Positions 276 through 10,977 of a DNA stretch of 64,000 bases are shown here, piece after piece. Where the stretch lies: NCBI GenBank assembly GCA_008080735.1, contig SHMW01000010.1:1-64000 (forward strand), in the 5' to 3' direction. Source of the stretch: Promethearchaeota archaeon. GTDB lineage: Archaea > Asgardarchaeota > Lokiarchaeia > Sigyniarchaeales > SOKP01. The translations under genes and the position numbers were made by a program. How positions within the stretch are numbered: the stretch's first letter is position 1; each line of letters opens with the position of its first letter. The notes below the pieces were generated by a model, which saw only the letters and a list, made by a program, of their open reading frames with translations, did not search any database and was not told the DNA's origin.

Positions 276-1175
276 TTGGAAACTAATTCAACAAATGAAC
301 AAAAAGAAAGTGGGGAAAAAGAAATAATTAAAGAAGAGCAACCCATCAAATTTCATTGGTATTTGCTTGGTTTTGTCACAACTTATTTTGTATCATGGTT
401 AATCCCCGGAATTGCATTTTTCACTTATGTGATGCTATTTTTTTTACCTTATTTCCTTGAAACTTCCAATTTTATCCTAATCTTTACTGAATTAAAGCCA
501 TTACTTTCACTATTATTATTTCCCTTAGTTTTAATAGCCTGTGTATTGCTACATCTATTTTTTGCAGCGGCGGTCGTAAAATTTTGGTATGGATTTACTC
601 AGAGAATTTTGCCTTCAAAAGAAGGCGTTATACCCAGAAACGTTCCAAGTAAAACTTCAAGTTTATACCATATCCGCTCTTTTTTACTCAAATATCCAAA
701 GAATGCGGTAATGAAAGGAATGTTTCCTTGGGTATTTACATGGATTTTTAATTTTATAGGTTCGACAGAATATGGAAAAGGAACGACCGTCGAGGAGGAA
801 GTTTGCGGAGATAGGTTTGCAATAACAGGTGAAAATTGCTATGTTGGGCCAAATGCATCATTGGCAAGCCATTTAGTAGAGGGTATTTTTGGGAACATTT
901 ATTATTTCAAAGTAAAATTGGGTGATAATTGTACTGTGGGGGCAGAGACCCCATTAGCACCTGGTACAGAATTAGGAGACAATTCATATGTATTTCCCGG
1001 AGCTGCGACCTTAAAATTTACAGAGGGAAAAGGAGGCTATTATTATTTTGGAATGCCCATACGTAAATTGTTTTCTCGTAAATTGAAAAAATATTTGGGA
1101 CTCATTGATGAAGACCTCGAAAGAGCGGAGAAGCTGATGGAAATCCAACAAAAAAATAAGAAAGAGGATGATTAA
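276..1175 (+). CDS. Membrane protein with 2 TM segments and left-handed beta-helix (hexapeptide acyltransferase-like) domain; subunit A of trio 1
   Basis: Two hydrophobic segments, then hexapeptide repeats (ITGENCYVGPNA, VKLGDNCTVGAE, TELGDNSYV), SHLVEG and terminal YFGMP motif; TTG start. Confidence 0.8.
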   Translation: METNSTNEQKESGEKEIIKEEQPIKFHWYLLGFVTTYFVSWLIPGIAFFTYVMLFFLPYFLETSNFILIFTELKPLLSLLLFPLVLIACVLLHLFFAAAVVKFWYGFTQRILPSKEGVIPRNVPSKTSSLYHIRSFLLKYPKNAVMKGMFPWVFTWIFNFIGSTEYGKGTTVEEEVCGDRFAITGENCYVGPNASLASHLVEGIFGNIYYFKVKLGDNCTVGAETPLAPGTELGDNSYVFPGAATLKFTEGKGGYYYFGMPIRKLFSRKLKKYLGLIDEDLERAEKLMEIQQKNKKEDD

Positions 1176-1177
1176 AT

Positions 1178-2038
1178 TTGGGTAATGAAAATGAAGAGGA
1201 ACCAGAGGATGAATATTTAATAAATTTTGTAACCAGCAGCGCCATATCCCGAGTTAATCTGAAATTCCTAATAGTATATCTGCCGATTATTTGGTTGAGT
1301 GGTATGATAACCTTGACATATTGGTGGATTTATCAGCCAAGATGGCATTTATTTATAGATTTTCTCCTTTTACTACCAGCACATATATTAGCAATGCTAA
1401 CCATTTTTACCTTCGCTTGTGTTATATTTAGCAAACTTTTATTGATATTAGTAAATTTAATCCATAAACCACGAGAAGGGATCTTTCGAGCCGAACTTGG
1501 AGATAATGATTTTGAGTTTTGGTGTTTGAGAATCGAAATTAAAAAATTAGTTTTATGGCTTTTCAATAATTGGCCCTTGCCTTGGGCAGATGTTATAGCA
1601 TTTAAATGGTTTGGGACTAATATAGACCTTTCTAGCCATCTTCATGATGCGTGGTGTGATGCAGAATTTGTGAAATTCGGCAAAAGAGTGATGGTGGGGC
1701 AAGGTGCGGTGGTCATGTCAAGTATGGTTATTGGAAAGTACCTCATAATCAAGGAGGTAGTTTTGGACGACCATACGGTTGTAGGAGGGCAGAGTACAGT
1801 GGCACCTGGAACAATACTTGGAGAAGAATCTGTAGTAGGAGCGGCAGGATCTACTGCGTTTAATCAAATTCTTGAACCTGGTTGGATTTATGCGGGAATC
1901 CCAGCACGAAAACTAAAAACAAACGAACATGCGATTAAAAGGCGAGATATAATCGTTAAAAAGAAAATTGATGAGGAAGAAAAAGAAGAAATCAAACAAG
2001 AAGTAAATATAGATGAGGATAAAAAAGATTTGGTATAA
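1178..2038 (+). CDS. 2-TM + left-handed beta-helix protein; subunit B of trio 1
   Basis: HKPREGIF, VKFGKRVMVGQGA, VVLDDHTVVGGQSTVAPGTILGEESVVGA, WIYAGIPA; 2 bp after upstream stop. Confidence 0.8.
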   Translation: MGNENEEEPEDEYLINFVTSSAISRVNLKFLIVYLPIIWLSGMITLTYWWIYQPRWHLFIDFLLLLPAHILAMLTIFTFACVIFSKLLLILVNLIHKPREGIFRAELGDNDFEFWCLRIEIKKLVLWLFNNWPLPWADVIAFKWFGTNIDLSSHLHDAWCDAEFVKFGKRVMVGQGAVVMSSMVIGKYLIIKEVVLDDHTVVGGQSTVAPGTILGEESVVGAAGSTAFNQILEPGWIYAGIPARKLKTNEHAIKRRDIIVKKKIDEEEKEEIKQEVNIDEDKKDLV

Positions 2039-2053
2039 TGAGATGAATAAGAA

Positions 2054-2941
2054 ATGAGTGTTCCCACAAGTATGCGAGTAGGTCCGTTTGCTCCCACGGA
2101 ATTACCAAAAAAACGTTATATTCTGTTCTACGTATTTTTAATATGGATTAGTATAATCCCTATTATGCTCCAATTCTGGTTATATTGGCAATTTTTATGG
2201 GATTATCAAAGACCAATCCATTTTTATATTTATTTGCCGCTTTTTGCTTTTTTCTGTTATGTTGAGTTGGTTCTAATCTCATTAATATTTGCTAGAATAC
2301 TTCTAAGCGTAGTAAATACCATCCATAAGCCTCGAGAAGGAGTGTTTTTAAGGGATAAAAGCGATAAAAACTATCGATATTGGTGTATTCGAAATACAAT
2401 TAAAAGATGGCCTGTTTGGCTTGCGCATAAATTTCCATTTCCATTTTTAGATAACCTTTGTTTTAAAATGTTTGGGGTTAAAACCACCTTTACAAATTCA
2501 CTCTTCGAGGGGTGGGTGGATACGGAATTTATCGAATTTGGAGAAAATGTGGTTGTTGGGCAAAGTTCCCACATCCAATCCTCGGTCATTATGGGGAATT
2601 TGCTAATTGTACGGAAAACCGTAATAGAAGATGATGTAAGAATTGGAACTCATGCTGTCGTCATGCCAGGAACTCATATAGGGAAGAGAGCCTCACTAAG
2701 CACATGGTCCCTTACCACTGTCGGGCAAGAGCTTGAGTCGGGGTGGATCTATCATGGTGTTCCTGCCAGAAAATTTAAGAAAAACCGGTTTTTTGAGGAT
2801 GGTTTGGAAGATAAAATCCAGTTTAAAGCTGAGACACAAGAAAGGCTTGAGGAAATCTATAAAAAATATTATAGAAAGCATCAAGCTGAGCATGTCTCAT
2901 ACGTAGAGAGATTAAAACCCGCACCAGAAAAGGAGGATTAA
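2054..2941 (+). CDS. 2-TM + left-handed beta-helix protein; subunit C of trio 1
   Basis: HKPREGVF, IEFGENVVVGQSS, TVIEDDVRIGTHAVVMPGTHIG, WIYHGVPA. Confidence 0.8.
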   Translation: MSVPTSMRVGPFAPTELPKKRYILFYVFLIWISIIPIMLQFWLYWQFLWDYQRPIHFYIYLPLFAFFCYVELVLISLIFARILLSVVNTIHKPREGVFLRDKSDKNYRYWCIRNTIKRWPVWLAHKFPFPFLDNLCFKMFGVKTTFTNSLFEGWVDTEFIEFGENVVVGQSSHIQSSVIMGNLLIVRKTVIEDDVRIGTHAVVMPGTHIGKRASLSTWSLTTVGQELESGWIYHGVPARKFKKNRFFEDGLEDKIQFKAETQERLEEIYKKYYRKHQAEHVSYVERLKPAPEKED

Positions 2942-3083
2942 ATTCTCGAATTATATATTCTAAATTTTCCTCATTTCATAATCATACTAAATTATTCGTT
3001 TTTTGCATTAAATTTATGCATTTTAGGATTAATTTGGACTAATTATAAAAACTGCTGTTGATATTTATTCTTCAAGAACAATA

Positions 3084-3557
3084 ATGACAAAATGTTTTTA
3101 TTGTAAAAACCAAATTGAAACAATTCCATTTCGATGTAAATATTGCGGGATGGTGTTTTGTCGTAAACACAGATTACCAGAAAATCATAATTGTACTTTC
3201 TTTTTTCAATTTGACGAGTCTGACAAAATTCGATATCAAGACACCTTGGATTATATGAGGAAAAATCTGAGTGTGGCAGATATATACCATTATTTCACAA
3301 CAAAAGAATATACTGAAGCCCAAACTCTTGAATTACTCCAACATTTTATTGAACAAAATGATGACCCTGAAATTAGAATATATAGCTTAGAAGCACTGAA
3401 ATTACTTGATTTGGATAGAGATAAAGTTTTTACGATTCTAGAAGCGTCTGTGCTCTCTGATGCGGATTCTAATGTACGAGAAATCGGAATAAAGATTCTT
3501 AAAGAGATATTTCCAAAAAAGAGCAAAAATATCTTGAAATGGATTGAGGATAGATAA
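3084..3557 (+). CDS. AN1-type zinc finger fused to HEAT-like repeats
   Basis: CFYC...PFRCKYCGMVFCRKHRLPENHNC matches the AN1 pattern; DDPEIRIYSLEAL and DADSNVREIGIKIL resemble HEAT repeats. Confidence 0.8.
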   Translation: MTKCFYCKNQIETIPFRCKYCGMVFCRKHRLPENHNCTFFFQFDESDKIRYQDTLDYMRKNLSVADIYHYFTTKEYTEAQTLELLQHFIEQNDDPEIRIYSLEALKLLDLDRDKVFTILEASVLSDADSNVREIGIKILKEIFPKKSKNILKWIEDR

Positions 3558-3841
3558 TATTATTCGGCTATATTCCCATTCATCGTTCTTTAGGTATTTA
3601 TTACTCGTATAAATAAAATTATCTTATTATTTAACATTCATCAGTATATCTAATTATTCCTCACCGATAATAAGATTTTGATACACTATATAAATCTATT
3701 TCGAAATTTAAGAAAGTAGACATTACACATCAAGTAATTAATTTTAAATATTCACTGAAAAACCCCTCTACTCTAAATATTTTGAACTTTTAATGAAATA
3801 TAATCTCAAGTTTTTTTAAGAAAATCCTAATAACTATTCCT

Positions 3842-4213
3842 ATGACACTCAATAGAAAAGATGCTCCCAAAAGTTTTATTCCTATTTTCATAATATGGAT
3901 ATTTCTCTGTAATGTGGCAGCAATAATTCTTGCTGTGGTATGGTGGTTACAATTTCCCGAGACTTTTCTGTTTGACGCGACCATTTCCATGGTTATAATT
4001 ATTGGTATAAATGTGCTAAGTATTATTCTTTTATATCCTATGTTCGGAATGGATCCTATAAGACCATTTTTAAAGGGAGCACTTATATGGTATGTGGTCA
4101 TTTCAATAATTTATATTATATTGTGGGCGTGGATCTTTTTGATTCCGGGGACAATCCAGTTGATGGGGGACCTTTGGTTTCATTGGAAGAGGAAAAAATT
4201 AATTGGCGAATAA
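3842..4213 (+). CDS. Hypothetical membrane protein (3-4 TM)
   Basis: Hydrophobic ORF, 123 aa. Confidence 0.6.
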   Translation: MTLNRKDAPKSFIPIFIIWIFLCNVAAIILAVVWWLQFPETFLFDATISMVIIIGINVLSIILLYPMFGMDPIRPFLKGALIWYVVISIIYIILWAWIFLIPGTIQLMGDLWFHWKRKKLIGE

Positions 4214-4354
4214 AAATCTAATGATTTGCTTTTTTTATTTTAAATTTTATTTTATCTCCTTTTAAATAGAAATAAACCTTATATATGGCTTTTACATTAG
4301 AAAATTAATAGTAAATGCAATAATATACGCCATTCGTAAAATAGATCATCAATT

Positions 4355-5260
4355 ATGTCGAATGAATCTACTGAATCGAATTCTGTTGCAGATGGTAGAA
4401 AGGGGAGAAAAGAGCTTGAAGTGGAGAAGACAGAGATAAATCTTCAATTTCATTTTTATTTCTTAGGATTTGGAACTGCCTATTTACTTTCTTGGCTCAT
4501 TCCAGCAATAATTTTATGGATTTATGCATTTTTAGTCTATTTACCGTTCTTCTTAAACGCAAGCTCTCTTATTATCCTTTTCACAGATATTAGAGCGTTA
4601 TTAGCATCAATTTTCATGCCTTTAATCGTAATAGTCTGTTATTTAATCCATTTATTTATTGTAGCTGCTGTAACTCGATTTTGGTGGAACATAACCGAAA
4701 AAATACGACCATCAAAAAATGGAATTATACCCCGCAATATTCCCAGTAAAACTCTCAATTTGTATCATATTCGTAGTTTTTTAATAAAATATCCAAAACA
4801 CGCGTTTAATAGGGGACCATTTCCTTGGTTACTTCCTTGGCTTTATAACTTTGTGGGTGCGAACAAAGTTGGGAAGGGGACAACTATTGAGGAGCAATTC
4901 GGAGCGGACAAATTTGTTGAAATTGGGAATAATTCATATATTGGGGTAAATTCTGGATTTAGTTCTCATGCAGTTGATGGGACTTTCGGAAATGTAGCTT
5001 ATTTTAAAATTAAAGTTGGAGATAATGTGACAACATCTTGTTTGAATTGTATCGCACCAGGCGTTGAGATCAATGATAATTCATATCTCCTCCCAATGGC
5101 TGGGGCGACAAAACATAGTGTTTTAAAAGGAGATAATTATTATTTCGGAGTTCCCTTGCGACGTGCCTTCTCACGAAAAGTAAGAGAATATCTAAATGTA
5201 TCAAAAGAAGACTTGGAACGGGCGGAGCAATTAAATGAAGCTGAAAATATGAAGGATTAG
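4355..5260 (+). CDS. 2-TM + left-handed beta-helix protein; subunit A' of trio 2 (paralog of 276..1175)
   Basis: GIIPRNIPSKTLNLYHIRSFLIKYPK vs GVIPRNVPSKTSSLYHIRSFLLKYPK; SSHAVDG; YFGVP. Confidence 0.8.
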   Translation: MSNESTESNSVADGRKGRKELEVEKTEINLQFHFYFLGFGTAYLLSWLIPAIILWIYAFLVYLPFFLNASSLIILFTDIRALLASIFMPLIVIVCYLIHLFIVAAVTRFWWNITEKIRPSKNGIIPRNIPSKTLNLYHIRSFLIKYPKHAFNRGPFPWLLPWLYNFVGANKVGKGTTIEEQFGADKFVEIGNNSYIGVNSGFSSHAVDGTFGNVAYFKIKVGDNVTTSCLNCIAPGVEINDNSYLLPMAGATKHSVLKGDNYYFGVPLRRAFSRKVREYLNVSKEDLERAEQLNEAENMKD

Positions 5261-6166
5261 GTGGTCAAGATGACAGAAAGTGAGACAAAGCAAAAAGATA
5301 TAAAATCAGATCAACTGGTTGTACCAAAAGGACATGAAATCTCCGAGTTAGAAATTGATTTTATAACTACGGGAGCAATGAAATCAATCAATTATACACC
5401 TTTGATATTATATATTCCAGTTATCTGGATAAGCAGCTTTCTAGTAATAATTTTTTGGGTATATTTTTTTATTTTAAATGAATTGGTCATATTGCAAGTT
5501 GTATTATTTCCTCCTATGGTTTTTGGGTCTTATATGGTTTTCATTTTAGGAGTGGCCATATCAGCAAAATTACTTATGATAATCATTGAAATGATCCATC
5601 TCCCAAGAGAGGGTATATTTATAGCTCAAAAAGGAAATAAAGAGTATGATTTCTGGTGTCTTCGCGTCCAATTGAAAAAGTTTGTTTTATGGGTGATGGA
5701 TAATTGTCCAGTCCCATGGATAGATATCTGGGGGTTTAAATGGTTCGGTCTAAAAGTAGATTTCTCCAGTCATATGTTTGATGCGTGGGTCGATACGGAA
5801 TTTATTGAGTTCGGACACAAAATTACGGTGGGACAGGGAGCAACGCTAATGAGTTCGATGGTTGTTGGGAAATATCTTATAATCAAAAAAATTATCTTTG
5901 AGGATTATGCGGTTATAGGAGGTGTTTCTAATATAGCTCCAGGTACAAAAATAGGCGAGGAGACCATAATCGGAGCATTTAGTACTACGAATTACAATCA
6001 AGAACTTGAACCAGGATGGGTCTATTTTGGAATACCCGCTTCAAAATTAAAAGAAAATAAATATTCGGAAATAAGGACTGGCATGGTCTATAAAAAAGAT
6101 GTTGATGAAGAATCCAAATATTTGGTAAAGGAGGATATCAACATCGATGAGGATGGTAATAAATAG
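5261..6166 (+). CDS. 2-TM + left-handed beta-helix protein; subunit B' of trio 2 (paralog of 1178..2038)
   Basis: PREGIF, DFWCLR, SSHMFDAWVD, MSSMVVGKYLIIK, NQELEPGWVYFGIPA. Confidence 0.8.
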   Translation: MVKMTESETKQKDIKSDQLVVPKGHEISELEIDFITTGAMKSINYTPLILYIPVIWISSFLVIIFWVYFFILNELVILQVVLFPPMVFGSYMVFILGVAISAKLLMIIIEMIHLPREGIFIAQKGNKEYDFWCLRVQLKKFVLWVMDNCPVPWIDIWGFKWFGLKVDFSSHMFDAWVDTEFIEFGHKITVGQGATLMSSMVVGKYLIIKKIIFEDYAVIGGVSNIAPGTKIGEETIIGAFSTTNYNQELEPGWVYFGIPASKLKENKYSEIRTGMVYKKDVDEESKYLVKEDINIDEDGNK

Positions 6167-6179
6167 GAAATACTAAAAG

Positions 6180-7052
6180 TTGAAAAAGGATAAAATGTCA
6201 AAACCTGCATCGTTAAAAGTTGGACCATTTACAACAAATGTTCTCGTTAAGAAGAGATACTTGCTGTTTTATTTATTTCTTTTTTGGGTTGCTCTTTTTA
6301 CTATTCAATTTGAATTTTGGATTTATTACCATTATTTGAGTACGGAAATAATTTTATTTTACGTATTGCTGCCATTTTTGCTTATTTTTTTGTATATTTC
6401 GAGTGTATTTGTATCGCTTCTATTTGCGAAATTTTTGCTTTTTTGTGTTAACTTGATTCATAAACCACGCGAAGGAGTTTTTCTAAGAGATAAAAATGAT
6501 ATTGATTATCGCTATTGGAGCATACGCAATACGATAAAAAAATGGCCCGTATGGCTTTCCCATAAATTCCCCTTCCCGTTTTTGGATAATCTTTGTTTCA
6601 AAATGTTCGGGGTAAAAACAAGATTTAAAAATTCACTCTTTGAGGGGTGGGTGGATACGGAATTTATCGAATTCGGGGAAAATGTCACTGTGGGAGAGGG
6701 AAGTATAATTCAATCCGCATTAATCGCCGGTAATTTATTTATCATTCGAAAAACAGAAATAGGTAATAATGTAGAGATTGGGAGCCATGCGATACTTATG
6801 CCAGGAACCAAAATAGGAGATAATTGTATTGTCGCTGCAAGTTCCACTACTACCGTTGGTCAAGAATTAGAATCGGGTTGGATATATTTAGGTGTTCCAG
6901 CGACCAAATTTAAGAAAAATAGGTTTTTTGATGACAATCTAGAAGACTTGATTGGTGACTCGGAAGATATCGAAAATTTACGAGAAAAATATGATTTGGT
7001 ATACGTAAAAAGGAAAGATAAAGAAAAAATTCAAAAAAACTCTCCTGAGTAA
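6180..7052 (+). CDS. 2-TM + left-handed beta-helix protein; subunit C' of trio 2 (paralog of 2054..2941)
   Basis: HKFPFPFLDNLCFKMFGVKT and NSLFEGWVDTEFIEFGENV identical to subunit C. Confidence 0.8.
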   Translation: MKKDKMSKPASLKVGPFTTNVLVKKRYLLFYLFLFWVALFTIQFEFWIYYHYLSTEIILFYVLLPFLLIFLYISSVFVSLLFAKFLLFCVNLIHKPREGVFLRDKNDIDYRYWSIRNTIKKWPVWLSHKFPFPFLDNLCFKMFGVKTRFKNSLFEGWVDTEFIEFGENVTVGEGSIIQSALIAGNLFIIRKTEIGNNVEIGSHAILMPGTKIGDNCIVAASSTTTVGQELESGWIYLGVPATKFKKNRFFDDNLEDLIGDSEDIENLREKYDLVYVKRKDKEKIQKNSPE

Positions 7053-7499: not shown

Positions 7500-7599
7500 A
7501 TGATTTTTTATTAGTATCAAATTTAAATATAAAGCTGATAACACTTATTTAATACAACCTAATGATATATAAATTATTTACATTTTGAGGGAGAAAAAA

Positions 7600-8418
7600 A
7601 TGTCTGATGTTTTAATATCTATATTACAGATACTTGGTTGGACTGGTCTATTCTTTTTAGGATATTTATTACTGGCATTTGTTGTAGGAACTGCCAAAAA
7701 AGACAATTCATTGATAGATCGCTTTTATCCTGGTGGATTTATGCTAATTGCATGGTCAACCTTGATCTTAAAAGGAACTTTCGATTTTAGACAAATCATA
7801 ATAACAATCTTAGTCACGATCTGGGGAATCAGGCTCGGCACATATGTCACTATTAGAAATTGGGGAAAAGGTGAGGATAAACGATATCAAAATATGCGAG
7901 AACGTTGGGGAGATAAAGTTCTTATAAATAGTCTTCTTCGCATCTATCTCTTTCAAGGATTAATTATTTTTTTAGTTGTCTCTCCTGTGTCATATATTAA
8001 TGTTGTTGATAATCCAGCAATTTGGTGGTTAGATTTTATTGGAATTGGTGTCTGGGTAATTGGGTTTTATTTTGAAACGGTAGGAGATTACCAATTATAT
8101 GTATTCTTAAATAATCCAGAAAATCAGGGAAAGGTTTTTGATGAAGGATTATGGCGTTATACTCAACATCCAAACTATTTCGGGGAAGTCACTCAATGGT
8201 GGGGAATCTTTTTAGTCGCAACAAGCGTTGCACTCAAAGTATATTTTCCCTATGGATTTATTACGATTATAGGACCAATCATTATCACCTATATGATTAT
8301 TAACGTTTCTGGTGTCAGATTATTGAACAAACAATTTGAAGGAGATAGTGAATACGCAAGATATAAGCGACGAACCAGCCAATTTATCCCACTACCGCCC
8401 AAAAAAGATAAGGATTAA
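7600..8418 (+). CDS. DUF1295 / steroid 5-alpha-reductase-like membrane protein
   Basis: GEDKRY, ETVGDYQL, GLWRYTQHPNYFGE, YKRRTSQFIP; ATG at 7600 preferred over TTG 7585. Confidence 0.85.
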   Translation: MSDVLISILQILGWTGLFFLGYLLLAFVVGTAKKDNSLIDRFYPGGFMLIAWSTLILKGTFDFRQIIITILVTIWGIRLGTYVTIRNWGKGEDKRYQNMRERWGDKVLINSLLRIYLFQGLIIFLVVSPVSYINVVDNPAIWWLDFIGIGVWVIGFYFETVGDYQLYVFLNNPENQGKVFDEGLWRYTQHPNYFGEVTQWWGIFLVATSVALKVYFPYGFITIIGPIIITYMIINVSGVRLLNKQFEGDSEYARYKRRTSQFIPLPPKKDKD

Positions 8419-8572
8419 AATCTTCTTTCTTTTTTTACTTTTTTATTATTAAAATATTTCTATTTTGATCTTTGACTAATAAAAACTAATTCTTTATTAA
8501 TGGAAAAAATCAGAGATATAAATTTAAAAAAAATTGTAATTTGTGTCGAAAAAATAGATCTTCTTAATTTTA

Positions 8573-10342
8573 TTATTCTTTGTATAATGGATCTGCTTCC
8601 TGTAAGGCTCTACGTTGGACTTTTCCCAATACGTTTTTCGGTACTTCAGGAATAAATTCTATCTGTGTCGGAACTTTCCATCTTGTGAGATTTTCCTTAG
8701 CCCAATCGATAAGCTCTTGCTCTGTTATTTTCCCTTGATATCCTGGCTCTAATGCAACCCATGCTTTAATTATTTCTCCTACTTTACCCTCTGGATCGGG
8801 TAAACCTGCTACGGCAGCCTCGTTTACGGCTTCATTTCTCATTAAGAACTCTTCTACTTCCTTTGGAAAGACTGAATGACCCGCCATCTTGATAAGCTGT
8901 TTTTTACGGTCTCGAATGGTTACTAATCCATCATCTCTCATAAATCCGATATCGCCTGTTCGTAGCCAAATTCTTCCATCCCATTCTTGAAGGGTGGAAG
9001 CGGTTTCTTCAGGTTTATTTAAATATCCTTTCATAACTTGTGGCCCGCAAACACATATCTCCCCCGTATTTTCTTCTCCATACTTTGAACCTGGAAGACC
9101 ATTTGCAATTGGCCCATCGCTTAAGTCATCTGCTTCTGCGCTAAAGATACCCCAGTCTGTTCCCGGTATTGGCATACCGATATTACCTAAGGGACTTTCT
9201 CCAAAGAGACTTCCTGAACTTACAACTGGACTGGCTTCAGAAAGCCCGTATCCTTCAACAATCTTACCACCAGTATTTTCTTCAAATGCTTCTTGTACTG
9301 GAGCGTGGAGTGGTCCAGCGCCGGAAATGCATTTCTTTATTTTGCCCATAATATCATAATCATCTAAATCGGGAAATTCCGCTAATCGCTTGAACAAGAT
9401 TTCTGCTCCAACATACGCAACTCCCTCTGGAGCAGGCAACTTCTCAATCGTTTCCACTAGCTCCTCGGTCTCTGGAGGTCGTGGAAAGAGCATCATCCAT
9501 CCTCCTAAGCCAATAGATGCATTCATTACCGCAGTCATCCCAAAGGAATGAAATAATGGTAAAACGCCTAAATCTGCTATTCCTGGTTGTTCTCCACCCA
9601 ACCATTCCACACATTGAATCGCATTAGAAACCACATTGAAATGGGTAAGATTTGTTGCTTTAGGCACCCCAGTTGTACCACCCGTCATAATATAAGTTGC
9701 AGTATGCTCTGTAGGATCAATAGATATGTATGGTAATTTGGCGGGAGTGTTCAATAATTCGACAAAATCATAGCAAGGTTCAAAATCAACTTTTCCTTTT
9801 GGTATTTTACCTACTAACTTCCCAATGAATTTCAATACTGAAGAAATCCCTGAAGCCAGATCGGCAATGTTGGTAGAGATAATGAATTCTATATTGATTT
9901 TTTGGATTATTGGTTTAACCAATTCATCATATAACGCATCAAGAACAATGAGCGCCTTAGCCTCGGTTATTTCTATATGATGTAAAACCTCCAGAGGTTT
10001 ATAGGTCGGATTTATTCCCGTCGCAATTGCTCCGATTTTAGCACATGCGAAATAACTAATAACATATTGGAAACTATTTGGGAGCAAAAAACCGACACAA
10101 TCGCCTTCCCTTAGACCCAAATCATATAATGCCGTCGCAAGGGAATCAATCATCTTTCCTGCCTCTTCATAAGTCATCCAAGATTCCAAAAACCACATCA
10201 TATTCAAATCGCCATATTTTTCTCTCTGCCGTTCGAAAAATTCGCCTAAACTAAGCGATTCGAATTCTATATTTTTTTTAACTTCCTCGGGCCACCATTT
10301 TTTAAACCATTGCTTTTTTTCATCTACATACCATTTTTTCAT
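8573..10342 (-). CDS. fadD: Long-chain fatty-acid--CoA ligase (ANL adenylating enzyme)
   Basis: MTGGTTGVPK, EGYGLSE, LRTGD, DRKKQLIK, PKNVLGKV. Confidence 0.9.
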   Translation of the reverse strand: MKKWYVDEKKQWFKKWWPEEVKKNIEFESLSLGEFFERQREKYGDLNMMWFLESWMTYEEAGKMIDSLATALYDLGLREGDCVGFLLPNSFQYVISYFACAKIGAIATGINPTYKPLEVLHHIEITEAKALIVLDALYDELVKPIIQKINIEFIISTNIADLASGISSVLKFIGKLVGKIPKGKVDFEPCYDFVELLNTPAKLPYISIDPTEHTATYIMTGGTTGVPKATNLTHFNVVSNAIQCVEWLGGEQPGIADLGVLPLFHSFGMTAVMNASIGLGGWMMLFPRPPETEELVETIEKLPAPEGVAYVGAEILFKRLAEFPDLDDYDIMGKIKKCISGAGPLHAPVQEAFEENTGGKIVEGYGLSEASPVVSSGSLFGESPLGNIGMPIPGTDWGIFSAEADDLSDGPIANGLPGSKYGEENTGEICVCGPQVMKGYLNKPEETASTLQEWDGRIWLRTGDIGFMRDDGLVTIRDRKKQLIKMAGHSVFPKEVEEFLMRNEAVNEAAVAGLPDPEGKVGEIIKAWVALEPGYQGKITEQELIDWAKENLTRWKVPTQIEFIPEVPKNVLGKVQRRALQEADPLYKE

Positions 10343-10443
10343 TTTGTATCACATTTTTCATTATAAAATTTTGCCATCTTATTGTCTTATTGGTTTTTCT
10401 CATTTTTAAAGATTAACTTATTTGCCGAAAAAATAAATCACTT

Positions 10444-10977
10444 TTAAATTGGTATCCCATACATGCCAGTTAATGAATCTTCAAAGAGAGGAATTTGTGG
10501 CGGAAAATATGTGAATACTACAAAAAGAACACCGATAATTATAATTCCGAAGACGGAAATATATGAAATTTTGAGATTAAATTCAGATTTCATCATAATT
10601 TTATAACTTACAAATTGACCAACACTTACAGCGAATATGAAACTGAAAATATCAAGCCAAAGTATATGCTCACCAATAATTGCAGTATAGGTATAAAAAA
10701 AGACCGGAATTATAAAAAGAATCAACAATGCTGAAACTAAATTTGCCAGAAAAAAGTTTTGTGATTCTTTATTGACATTTCTATACTCAAGAATCCCAAA
10801 AAAAACTAATGGCCAATAGCCTAATTTCAAGTGTTCCCAGATACTTTCATTCACAGCACTGATGGCCCCAATGGGAGGAAAATTTCCAGAGAGTTCAAAA
10901 AGAAAATGCAAAAATGAGCCAAACATGATAATGAATACAGACCCACCAATCTGCCAATTCAGAATTTTATTTCTCAT
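10444..10977 (-). CDS. Conserved membrane protein (DUF6512-like)
   Basis: GSFLHFLFELSG, AVNESIWEHLKL, FYTYT, FTYFPPQIPLFED. Confidence 0.7.
   Translation of the reverse strand: MRNKILNWQIGGSVFIIMFGSFLHFLFELSGNFPPIGAISAVNESIWEHLKLGYWPLVFFGILEYRNVNKESQNFFLANLVSALLILFIIPVFFYTYTAIIGEHILWLDIFSFIFAVSVGQFVSYKIMMKSEFNLKISYISVFGIIIIGVLFVVFTYFPPQIPLFEDSLTGMYGIPI

Follow-up and report, generated by a model that had tools for sequence, protein, structure and literature searches.

The closest described counterpart of the genes analysed here is the terminal domain of the Pls/PosA family of non-ribosomal peptide synthetases (NRPS). This family includes epsilon-poly-L-lysine synthetase (Pls) and delta-poly-L-ornithine synthetase (PosA), and iterative formation of isopeptide bonds, which yields a cationic homopoly(amino acid), is characteristic of it. 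In an AlphaFold model the terminal domain of PosA contains six bent membrane helices, and each module contributes two helices and a strand, followed by a five-turn left-handed beta-helix (LbH) (PMC10522769). As of 2023 no experimental structure of the PosA/Pls terminal domain was available (PMC10522769), and sequence searches and Foldseek found none in a copy of the PDB up to April 2026. The window studied here, the first 64 kb of contig SHMW01000010.1 (C10) in the assembly of a Promethearchaeota archaeon from the Lokiarchaeia (GCA_008080735.1; 4.1 Mb, 93% complete), encodes six proteins that each correspond to one such module, in two three-gene operons, A-B-C and A'-B'-C', all on the forward strand (Table 1). 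No description of stand-alone or archaeal forms was found in the literature by searching that was in part loosely aimed, in which only the PosA paper (PMC10522769) surfaced.

Among NCBIfam models, TIGR02353 (NRPS_term_dom) is the best match for B (E 3.4e-9), C (6.9e-15), B' (1.3e-8), and C' (1.4e-12), and the match of C covers residues 27-243, which comprise the membrane helices, the linker, and the LbH. The curated cut-off of this model (423.1 bits over 695 positions) is not reached, the best score being 54.4 bits for C, and the aligned model positions (~8-224) represent one module; a control synthetase, P0248, scores 471 bits and thus lies above the cut-off. When 1.8 billion representative sequences were searched with a profile built from the six proteins, genuine synthetases with adenylation (A), carrier (T), and TIGR02353 domains were retrieved, namely P0248 (E 1e-26) and P0276, with three matched stretches in each. 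Alignment of the modules shows the P-x-E-G linker and the W/Y-x-G-x-P end also in the NRPS modules, and hhalign matched the A-type profile to NRPS module 3 with a probability of 98.3%, aligning S-H-L-V-E-G with T-H-L-F-E-D. Residues 14-277 of the A model can also be overlaid on ESM-Atlas models that bear the name 'Pls/PosA family non-ribosomal peptide synthetase' (template modelling (TM) score by query 0.66, root-mean-square deviation 3.2); an ESM-Atlas feature search returned the family's own clusters only. Sequence searches of the PDB with C and A yielded generic LbH enzymes only and no Pls-like chain. Sequence, profile, and predicted-structure comparisons concur that the Asgard module is, from end to end, a homologue of a single module among the three in the Pls/PosA terminal domain, a relationship already put forward in an earlier note made from the letters of this DNA.

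All six proteins consist of two N-terminal hydrophobic helices, a P-x-(E/K)-G linker, two short helices, a hexapeptide LbH, and a Y-x-G-x-P end. Pfam Hexapep (PF00132) matches each of them, and G117 (in the linker 'EG'), R134, S198, Y257, G259, and P261 are invariant in the six-way alignment. In the AlphaFold2 (AF2) model of A (predicted local distance difference test (pLDDT) 91, predicted TM score (pTM) 0.84), helices at residues 26-61 and 66-111 are followed by a strand at 117-120, helices at 126-146 and 151-161, the beta-helix at ~165-265, and two C-terminal helices. The hairpin of two long membrane helices, the linker, the strand with two helices, the five-turn LbH, and the terminal motif are all shared with Pls/PosA, as would be the number of three modules per enzyme. 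Lysine and arginine residues number 5-9 after helix 2 vs 0-1 in the inter-helix loop, and this clustering indicates that both termini would lie inside and the beta-helix in the cytoplasm. No PF00501 or PF00550 domain was found in the six proteins, which thus have no fused A or T domain. In the databases, members of the family are named hypothetical, 'acyltransferase', or 'DapH/DapD/GlmU-related' proteins.

Inside each operon the intergenic gaps measure 0-15 nt. BLASTP identities are 50% for A/A', 47% for B/B', and 62% for C/C', compared to 33-38% for B vs C and 20-28% for A vs B or C (E 1e-12 to 1e-20). This pairing reveals two operons of the same order, each built of three paralogous types. 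The identical six-gene layout recurs in two further species of the same genus (L070, L071) and is therefore far beyond chance. A scan for promoters and terminators used bacterial models and was uninformative for an archaeon. Coordinates and BLASTP pairing thus agree with the earlier note on two operons in the same order, and the alignment, the Hexapep matches, and the domain searches bear out its description of genes that each encode two transmembrane helices, a basic linker, a beta-helix, and a terminal Y.G.P motif with no fused A or T domain.

Table 1. Genes of the two A-B-C operons in the 64-kb window.
Feature	Position	Strand	Description
Subunit A	276-1175	+	299 aa, TTG start; two membrane helices, linker, LbH with S198-H199-x-V-E202-G; candidate catalytic subunit
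Subunit B	1178-2038	+	286 aa; architecture as A; Ser replaces His; start 2 nt past the A stop
Subunit C	2054-2941	+	295 aa; architecture as A; catalytic position without His; best conserved of the three types
Subunit A'	4355-5260	+	301 aa; paralogue of A; retains S-H-x-V-D-G
Subunit B'	5261-6166	+	301 aa from GTG start; ATG 3 codons downstream; paralogue of B
Subunit C'	6180-7052	+	290 aa from TTG start; ATG 5 codons downstream; paralogue of C

The soluble part of the module resembles maltose and galactoside O-acetyltransferases (MAT/GAT). These are the top Foldseek matches (TM-scores normalised to target length 0.55-0.64), and the helical N-terminal piece together with the beta-helix superposes best on them (E. 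coli LacA 1kqa, 1ocx, 3srt, 3ect), residues 109-288 of A giving VIA Z values of 13.8 with 3ect and 13.4 with 3srt. NF058585, which represents YvoF-type heptaprenylglyceryl phosphate O-acetyltransferase, also ranks high among the NCBIfam matches. In phmmer searches the best PDB match of A is the E. coli galactoside acetyltransferase GAT (1kqa), and His199 of A falls on His115, the catalytic base of GAT. An equivalent histidine occurs in A and A' only, whereas B, B', C, and C' carry Ser or Ala. Among 118 A-type homologues, S198, H199, V201, E202, and G203 show a conservation of 93% or more; Ser or Ala takes the place of the His in 121 C-type homologues. C is nevertheless the most conserved subunit, with identities of 60-96% among its homologues. 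A comparable asymmetry exists in Pls/PosA, where H-x-x-E is found in module 3 of the two NRPS examined; here it is confined to A. MAT/GAT and YvoF-type enzymes form soluble homotrimers whose three active sites are equivalent. The Asgard proteins, in contrast, are membrane-anchored and of three different kinds, and because only A retains a catalytic-type histidine, each complex likely has one active site.

The loss of this histidine from two of three subunits, and the strong conservation of the His-less C, would also be expected of a non-enzymatic structural or regulatory membrane assembly on a beta-helix scaffold, similar to the gamma-carbonic-anhydrase (gamma-CA) heterotrimer of mitochondrial complex I or to dynactin p25/p27, and complex I gamma-CA subunits do appear among the PDB sequence and fold matches. 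Such an assembly is most improbable, given that A retains His199, Glu202, and many polar residues in the great majority of its homologues and that active CoA-dependent acetyltransferases rank highest among the fold and sequence matches.

That A, B, and C form one heterotrimer is supported by natural fusions, a fixed gene order, the His loss in B and C, and complex prediction. Fusions of different types (marked '=' here) include an A=B protein of 623 aa (P0128), C=A proteins of 515-536 aa on contigs C53 and C1 of the same genome, and a 797-aa C=A=B protein (P0129), whose AF2 model (pLDDT 82.8, pTM 0.72) is one compact unit; a Foldseek search with this model found no PDB entry with six membrane helices and three beta-helices. 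The cyclic order of the modules, each typed with type-specific hidden Markov models in 27 loci of at least 10 genomes, is kept in all 27 as 'A B C', 'A=B C', or 'C=A B', and never reads A-C-B. Since these loci are related by descent, the count reflects few independent events rather than 27. A ring in which every subunit has to contact the following one through its C-terminus would call for such a fixed cyclic order. The predicted A+B+C complex scored 0.87, compared to 0.53 for the best control; three runs share at least 81% of contacts, and the pLDDT of the partners is at least 80. Of 78 solved complexes, 51 attain the pass mark of this prediction, as do 2 of 108 mismatched pairs; the A+B+C mix was the only one modelled. 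Where the earlier note had set a heterotrimer against homotrimers, the A+B+C half of the comparison is positive, and the fusions and the His pattern favour the heterotrimer. Hexapeptide acyltransferases are normally homotrimers, and the singleton homologues in other Asgard families presumably are as well, so that A3, B3, and C3 could be three separate enzymes that share an operon and catalyse, for example, successive acylation steps of one pathway. With B and C devoid of the catalytic His, however, B3 and C3 would have no base. The joining of different types in single chains, the fixed cyclic order, and the margin of the A+B+C prediction over its best control also speak against separate homotrimers, which we regard as quite unlikely.

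The family (E < 1e-40) is present in all 66 sampled genomes of the same archaeal family, with 2-18 matches in each, and its homologues carry the labels Lokiarchaeota or Promethearchaeota. Together with the constant order in the typed loci, this confirms the conservation of the A-B-C triplet. Each of the seven genomes for which the matches were listed in full contains several triplets, one pair, and one singleton. In the genome studied here (G000; loci L013-L016 on contigs C53, C1, C56, and C48) there are additionally two sets of the form C=A + B, a pair of genes with a metallophosphoesterase gene after it, and a singleton. The locus on C53 has an acyl-CoA dehydrogenase gene with a C-terminal extension upstream on the opposite strand and an MFS_2 transporter gene downstream on the same strand.

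In a tree of the modules, all Asgard modules form one clade (support 99/98), which splits into one clade of A modules (100/98) and one that unites B and C (98/93). NRPS modules and those of bacterial stand-alone tri-module proteins fall outside. Because the Asgard modules are a clade of their own, the triplication is, by this phylogeny, independent of Pls, and the system is not a broken Pls gene. For the 'split Pls-like' system of the earlier note, the homology of the modules holds, but 'split' is not to be taken to mean an origin in a disrupted Pls gene. A derivation of A from NRPS module 3, suggested by the shared H-x-x-E, was also rejected, as an approximately unbiased (AU) test excludes the respective clade (p 0.016; the group was chosen after the tree was seen). 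Unlike in Pls/PosA, the Asgard modules reside on three genes in this window and are partly or fully fused in related organisms, without A and T domains. The lack of adenylation and carrier domains and the presence of three modules of two transmembrane helices and an LbH are features shared with bacterial stand-alone tri-module proteins of 650-685 aa (for example Elusimicrobiota MBK8576353.1, which is P0240, and P0194 and P0197), which are uncharacterised and give partial TIGR02353 matches. Unlike the Asgard operons, however, these consist of one polypeptide, form a separate clade in the module tree, and contain the His in one to three modules. A metagenomic protein of 960 aa (P0231) combines a short-chain dehydrogenase domain with a three-module domain of the same type and has neither an A nor a T domain.

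Gene arrangements in other lineages shift with increasing distance. A sister family has two-gene pairs with the His in the upstream gene only; in the pairs of two more remote families of the class, both genes carry it. In two other Asgard families (genomes G038, G006) the homologues are dispersed single genes, and all six singletons inspected contain the His. The simplest reading is a path from a homotrimer to a heteromer that involved the loss of two of three active sites. In genome G109 (complete, 4.4 Mb), which belongs to the sister family, one pair has a His-less member (L045:5497-6801, minus strand) with an additional C-terminal part of ~150 aa without a Pfam match.

The fold of the subunits and the apparent absence of a carrier system bear on the donor substrate. 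Neither a PP-binding domain (PF00550) nor a phosphopantetheinyl transferase (PPTase; PF01648) was detected in the genome at its 93% completeness, and controls matched in 10-11 of 14 genomes. The co-occurring stand-alone carrier protein or PPTase sought by the earlier note was thus not recovered by this PF00550/PF01648 search, which, along with their own clade and triplication, distinguishes the Asgard operons from Pls/PosA. As no carrier protein or PPTase was detected, a CoA thioester is a likelier donor than a Pls-type aminoacyl carrier, and in combination with the fold this makes an acyl-CoA donor the more likely one. An alternative would be a true Pls-like poly(amino acid) synthetase in trans, in which A-B-C polymerises and exports an amino acid that is activated and supplied by another, adenylating enzyme, either directly or via a carrier. 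The homology of the module to the Pls/PosA polymerisation domain and the H-x-x-E common to A and NRPS module 3 would fit this mechanism, as would an AMP-binding gene on the other strand (8573-10342) 1.5 kb downstream of the operons and another near the related locus L024. However, the product of the neighbouring gene resembles a long-chain fatty-acid-CoA ligase, its adjacency is not conserved, and among the ~20 AMP-binding genes of the genome, to which it belongs, none reaches the cut-off for amino-acid adenylation. With no PP-binding domain or PPTase found and the Asgard modules in a clade apart from those of NRPS, synthesis in trans appears improbable.

Starting from the observed gene structure, homology, conservation, fusions, gene order, and His pattern, we infer the following stoichiometry, topology, CoA donor, and acceptor. 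With moderate confidence, each operon is proposed to encode one membrane A:B:C heterotrimer that has a single active site and transfers an acyl group from a CoA thioester. Every subunit would add a hairpin of two long membrane helices, resulting in six per complex, and a cytoplasmic MAT/GAT-like domain in which a short strand and two helices precede a five-turn left-handed beta-helix. The beta-helices of the three subunits would pack laterally against each other, in the manner of common hexapeptide acyltransferases and of the modelled C1-C2-C3 modules of PosA. The single active site, with His199 of A as the general base, is probably situated at the interface of A and a neighbouring subunit, and B and C would act as scaffold and substrate-shaping subunits. 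Most likely, the acyl group of a cytoplasmic CoA thioester would be transferred to a hydroxyl or amino group of an acceptor that sits at the six-helix membrane part or passes through it. Candidate acceptors are a lipid head group, a lipid-linked glycan, or an exported chain. The many paralogous sets per genome, which include triplets, one pair, and one singleton, suggest that different substrates are used.

Several points weigh against this model. Solved beta-helix trimers are abundant, and the passing score of A+B+C may in part reflect the predictor's memory of them. The stoichiometry may vary, as three loci (L018, L022, and L065) have A=B fusions that come without a dedicated C. The closest characterised relatives, Pls and PosA, form peptide bonds from carrier-bound amino acids and not from acyl-CoA. 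No neighbouring gene is conserved beyond close kin, so that the genomic context gives no hint of the acceptor. C, which is His-less yet most conserved, may hold an essential role outside the model. A divergent CxxCxxCC (PF03692) gene stands between each of these additional A=B fusions (~606 aa; L018:176-1996, L022:5754-7580, and L065) and the 'A=B C' set that comes next; the fusions either use the neighbouring C or form a different assembly. A further reading, which is unlikely, is that of a carrier-protein-independent membrane polymerase and exporter, in which a CoA thioester or another soluble activated monomer would be used at the single site and the product threaded through the six helices. 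As part of this same unlikely proposal, the system would be a minimal counterpart, with separable subunits, of the Pls polymerisation domain, and make a novel surface polymer or acylated lipid of Lokiarchaeia.

The gene neighbourhood contains further features. A 157-aa protein with zf-AN1 and HEAT domains is encoded between the two operons (3084-3557, plus strand) and is a possible recurring partner: a second zf-AN1 protein, fused to an M50 peptidase domain, is encoded just upstream of the paralogous locus on contig C1 (L014:4063-5106, minus strand), and a HEAT-repeat protein also follows a fused pair in genome G065 (L049). An open reading frame of 123 aa (3842-4213, plus strand), possibly a gene, which consists almost entirely of hydrophobic helices and has no family match, is located 140 nt upstream of A'. 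Downstream of C' (7585-10977) follow a gene for a DUF1295 (steroid-reductase/ICMT-like) membrane protein on the plus strand and, on the minus strand, the aforementioned fatty-acid-CoA-ligase-like gene and a DUF6512 gene; DUF6512 and AMP-binding genes are also found near the related loci L022 and L024. Genes that recur near loci of close kin, which are not independent of each other, are the divergent CxxCxxCC gene and AlaX-like, DUF6512, AMP-binding, and DedA/VTT genes. No CxxCxxCC gene is present at the matching place in the window. Seven more distant loci share no neighbour, and the genes there code for coiled-coil proteins, GDPD, CBS, aminotransferase, aconitase, POR, and HEAT proteins.

The mechanism of the membrane-embedded end of poly-lysine and poly-ornithine synthetases is poorly understood. 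The Asgard system offers the same module as three separate small proteins with one evident catalytic subunit, and is thus a far easier object for expression, mutagenesis, and cryo-electron microscopy (cryo-EM). It also provides an evolutionary series that leads from a single gene, with the His in all copies, over pairs to triplets with one His and finally to fusions, a textbook-style example, from the archaea most closely related to eukaryotes, of a homomer that turned into an asymmetric and obligate heteromer. As judged from the genomes, most members of this lokiarchaeial family maintain several paralogous sets (5-18 modules), which probably represent a major, unrecognised activity of the cell envelope.

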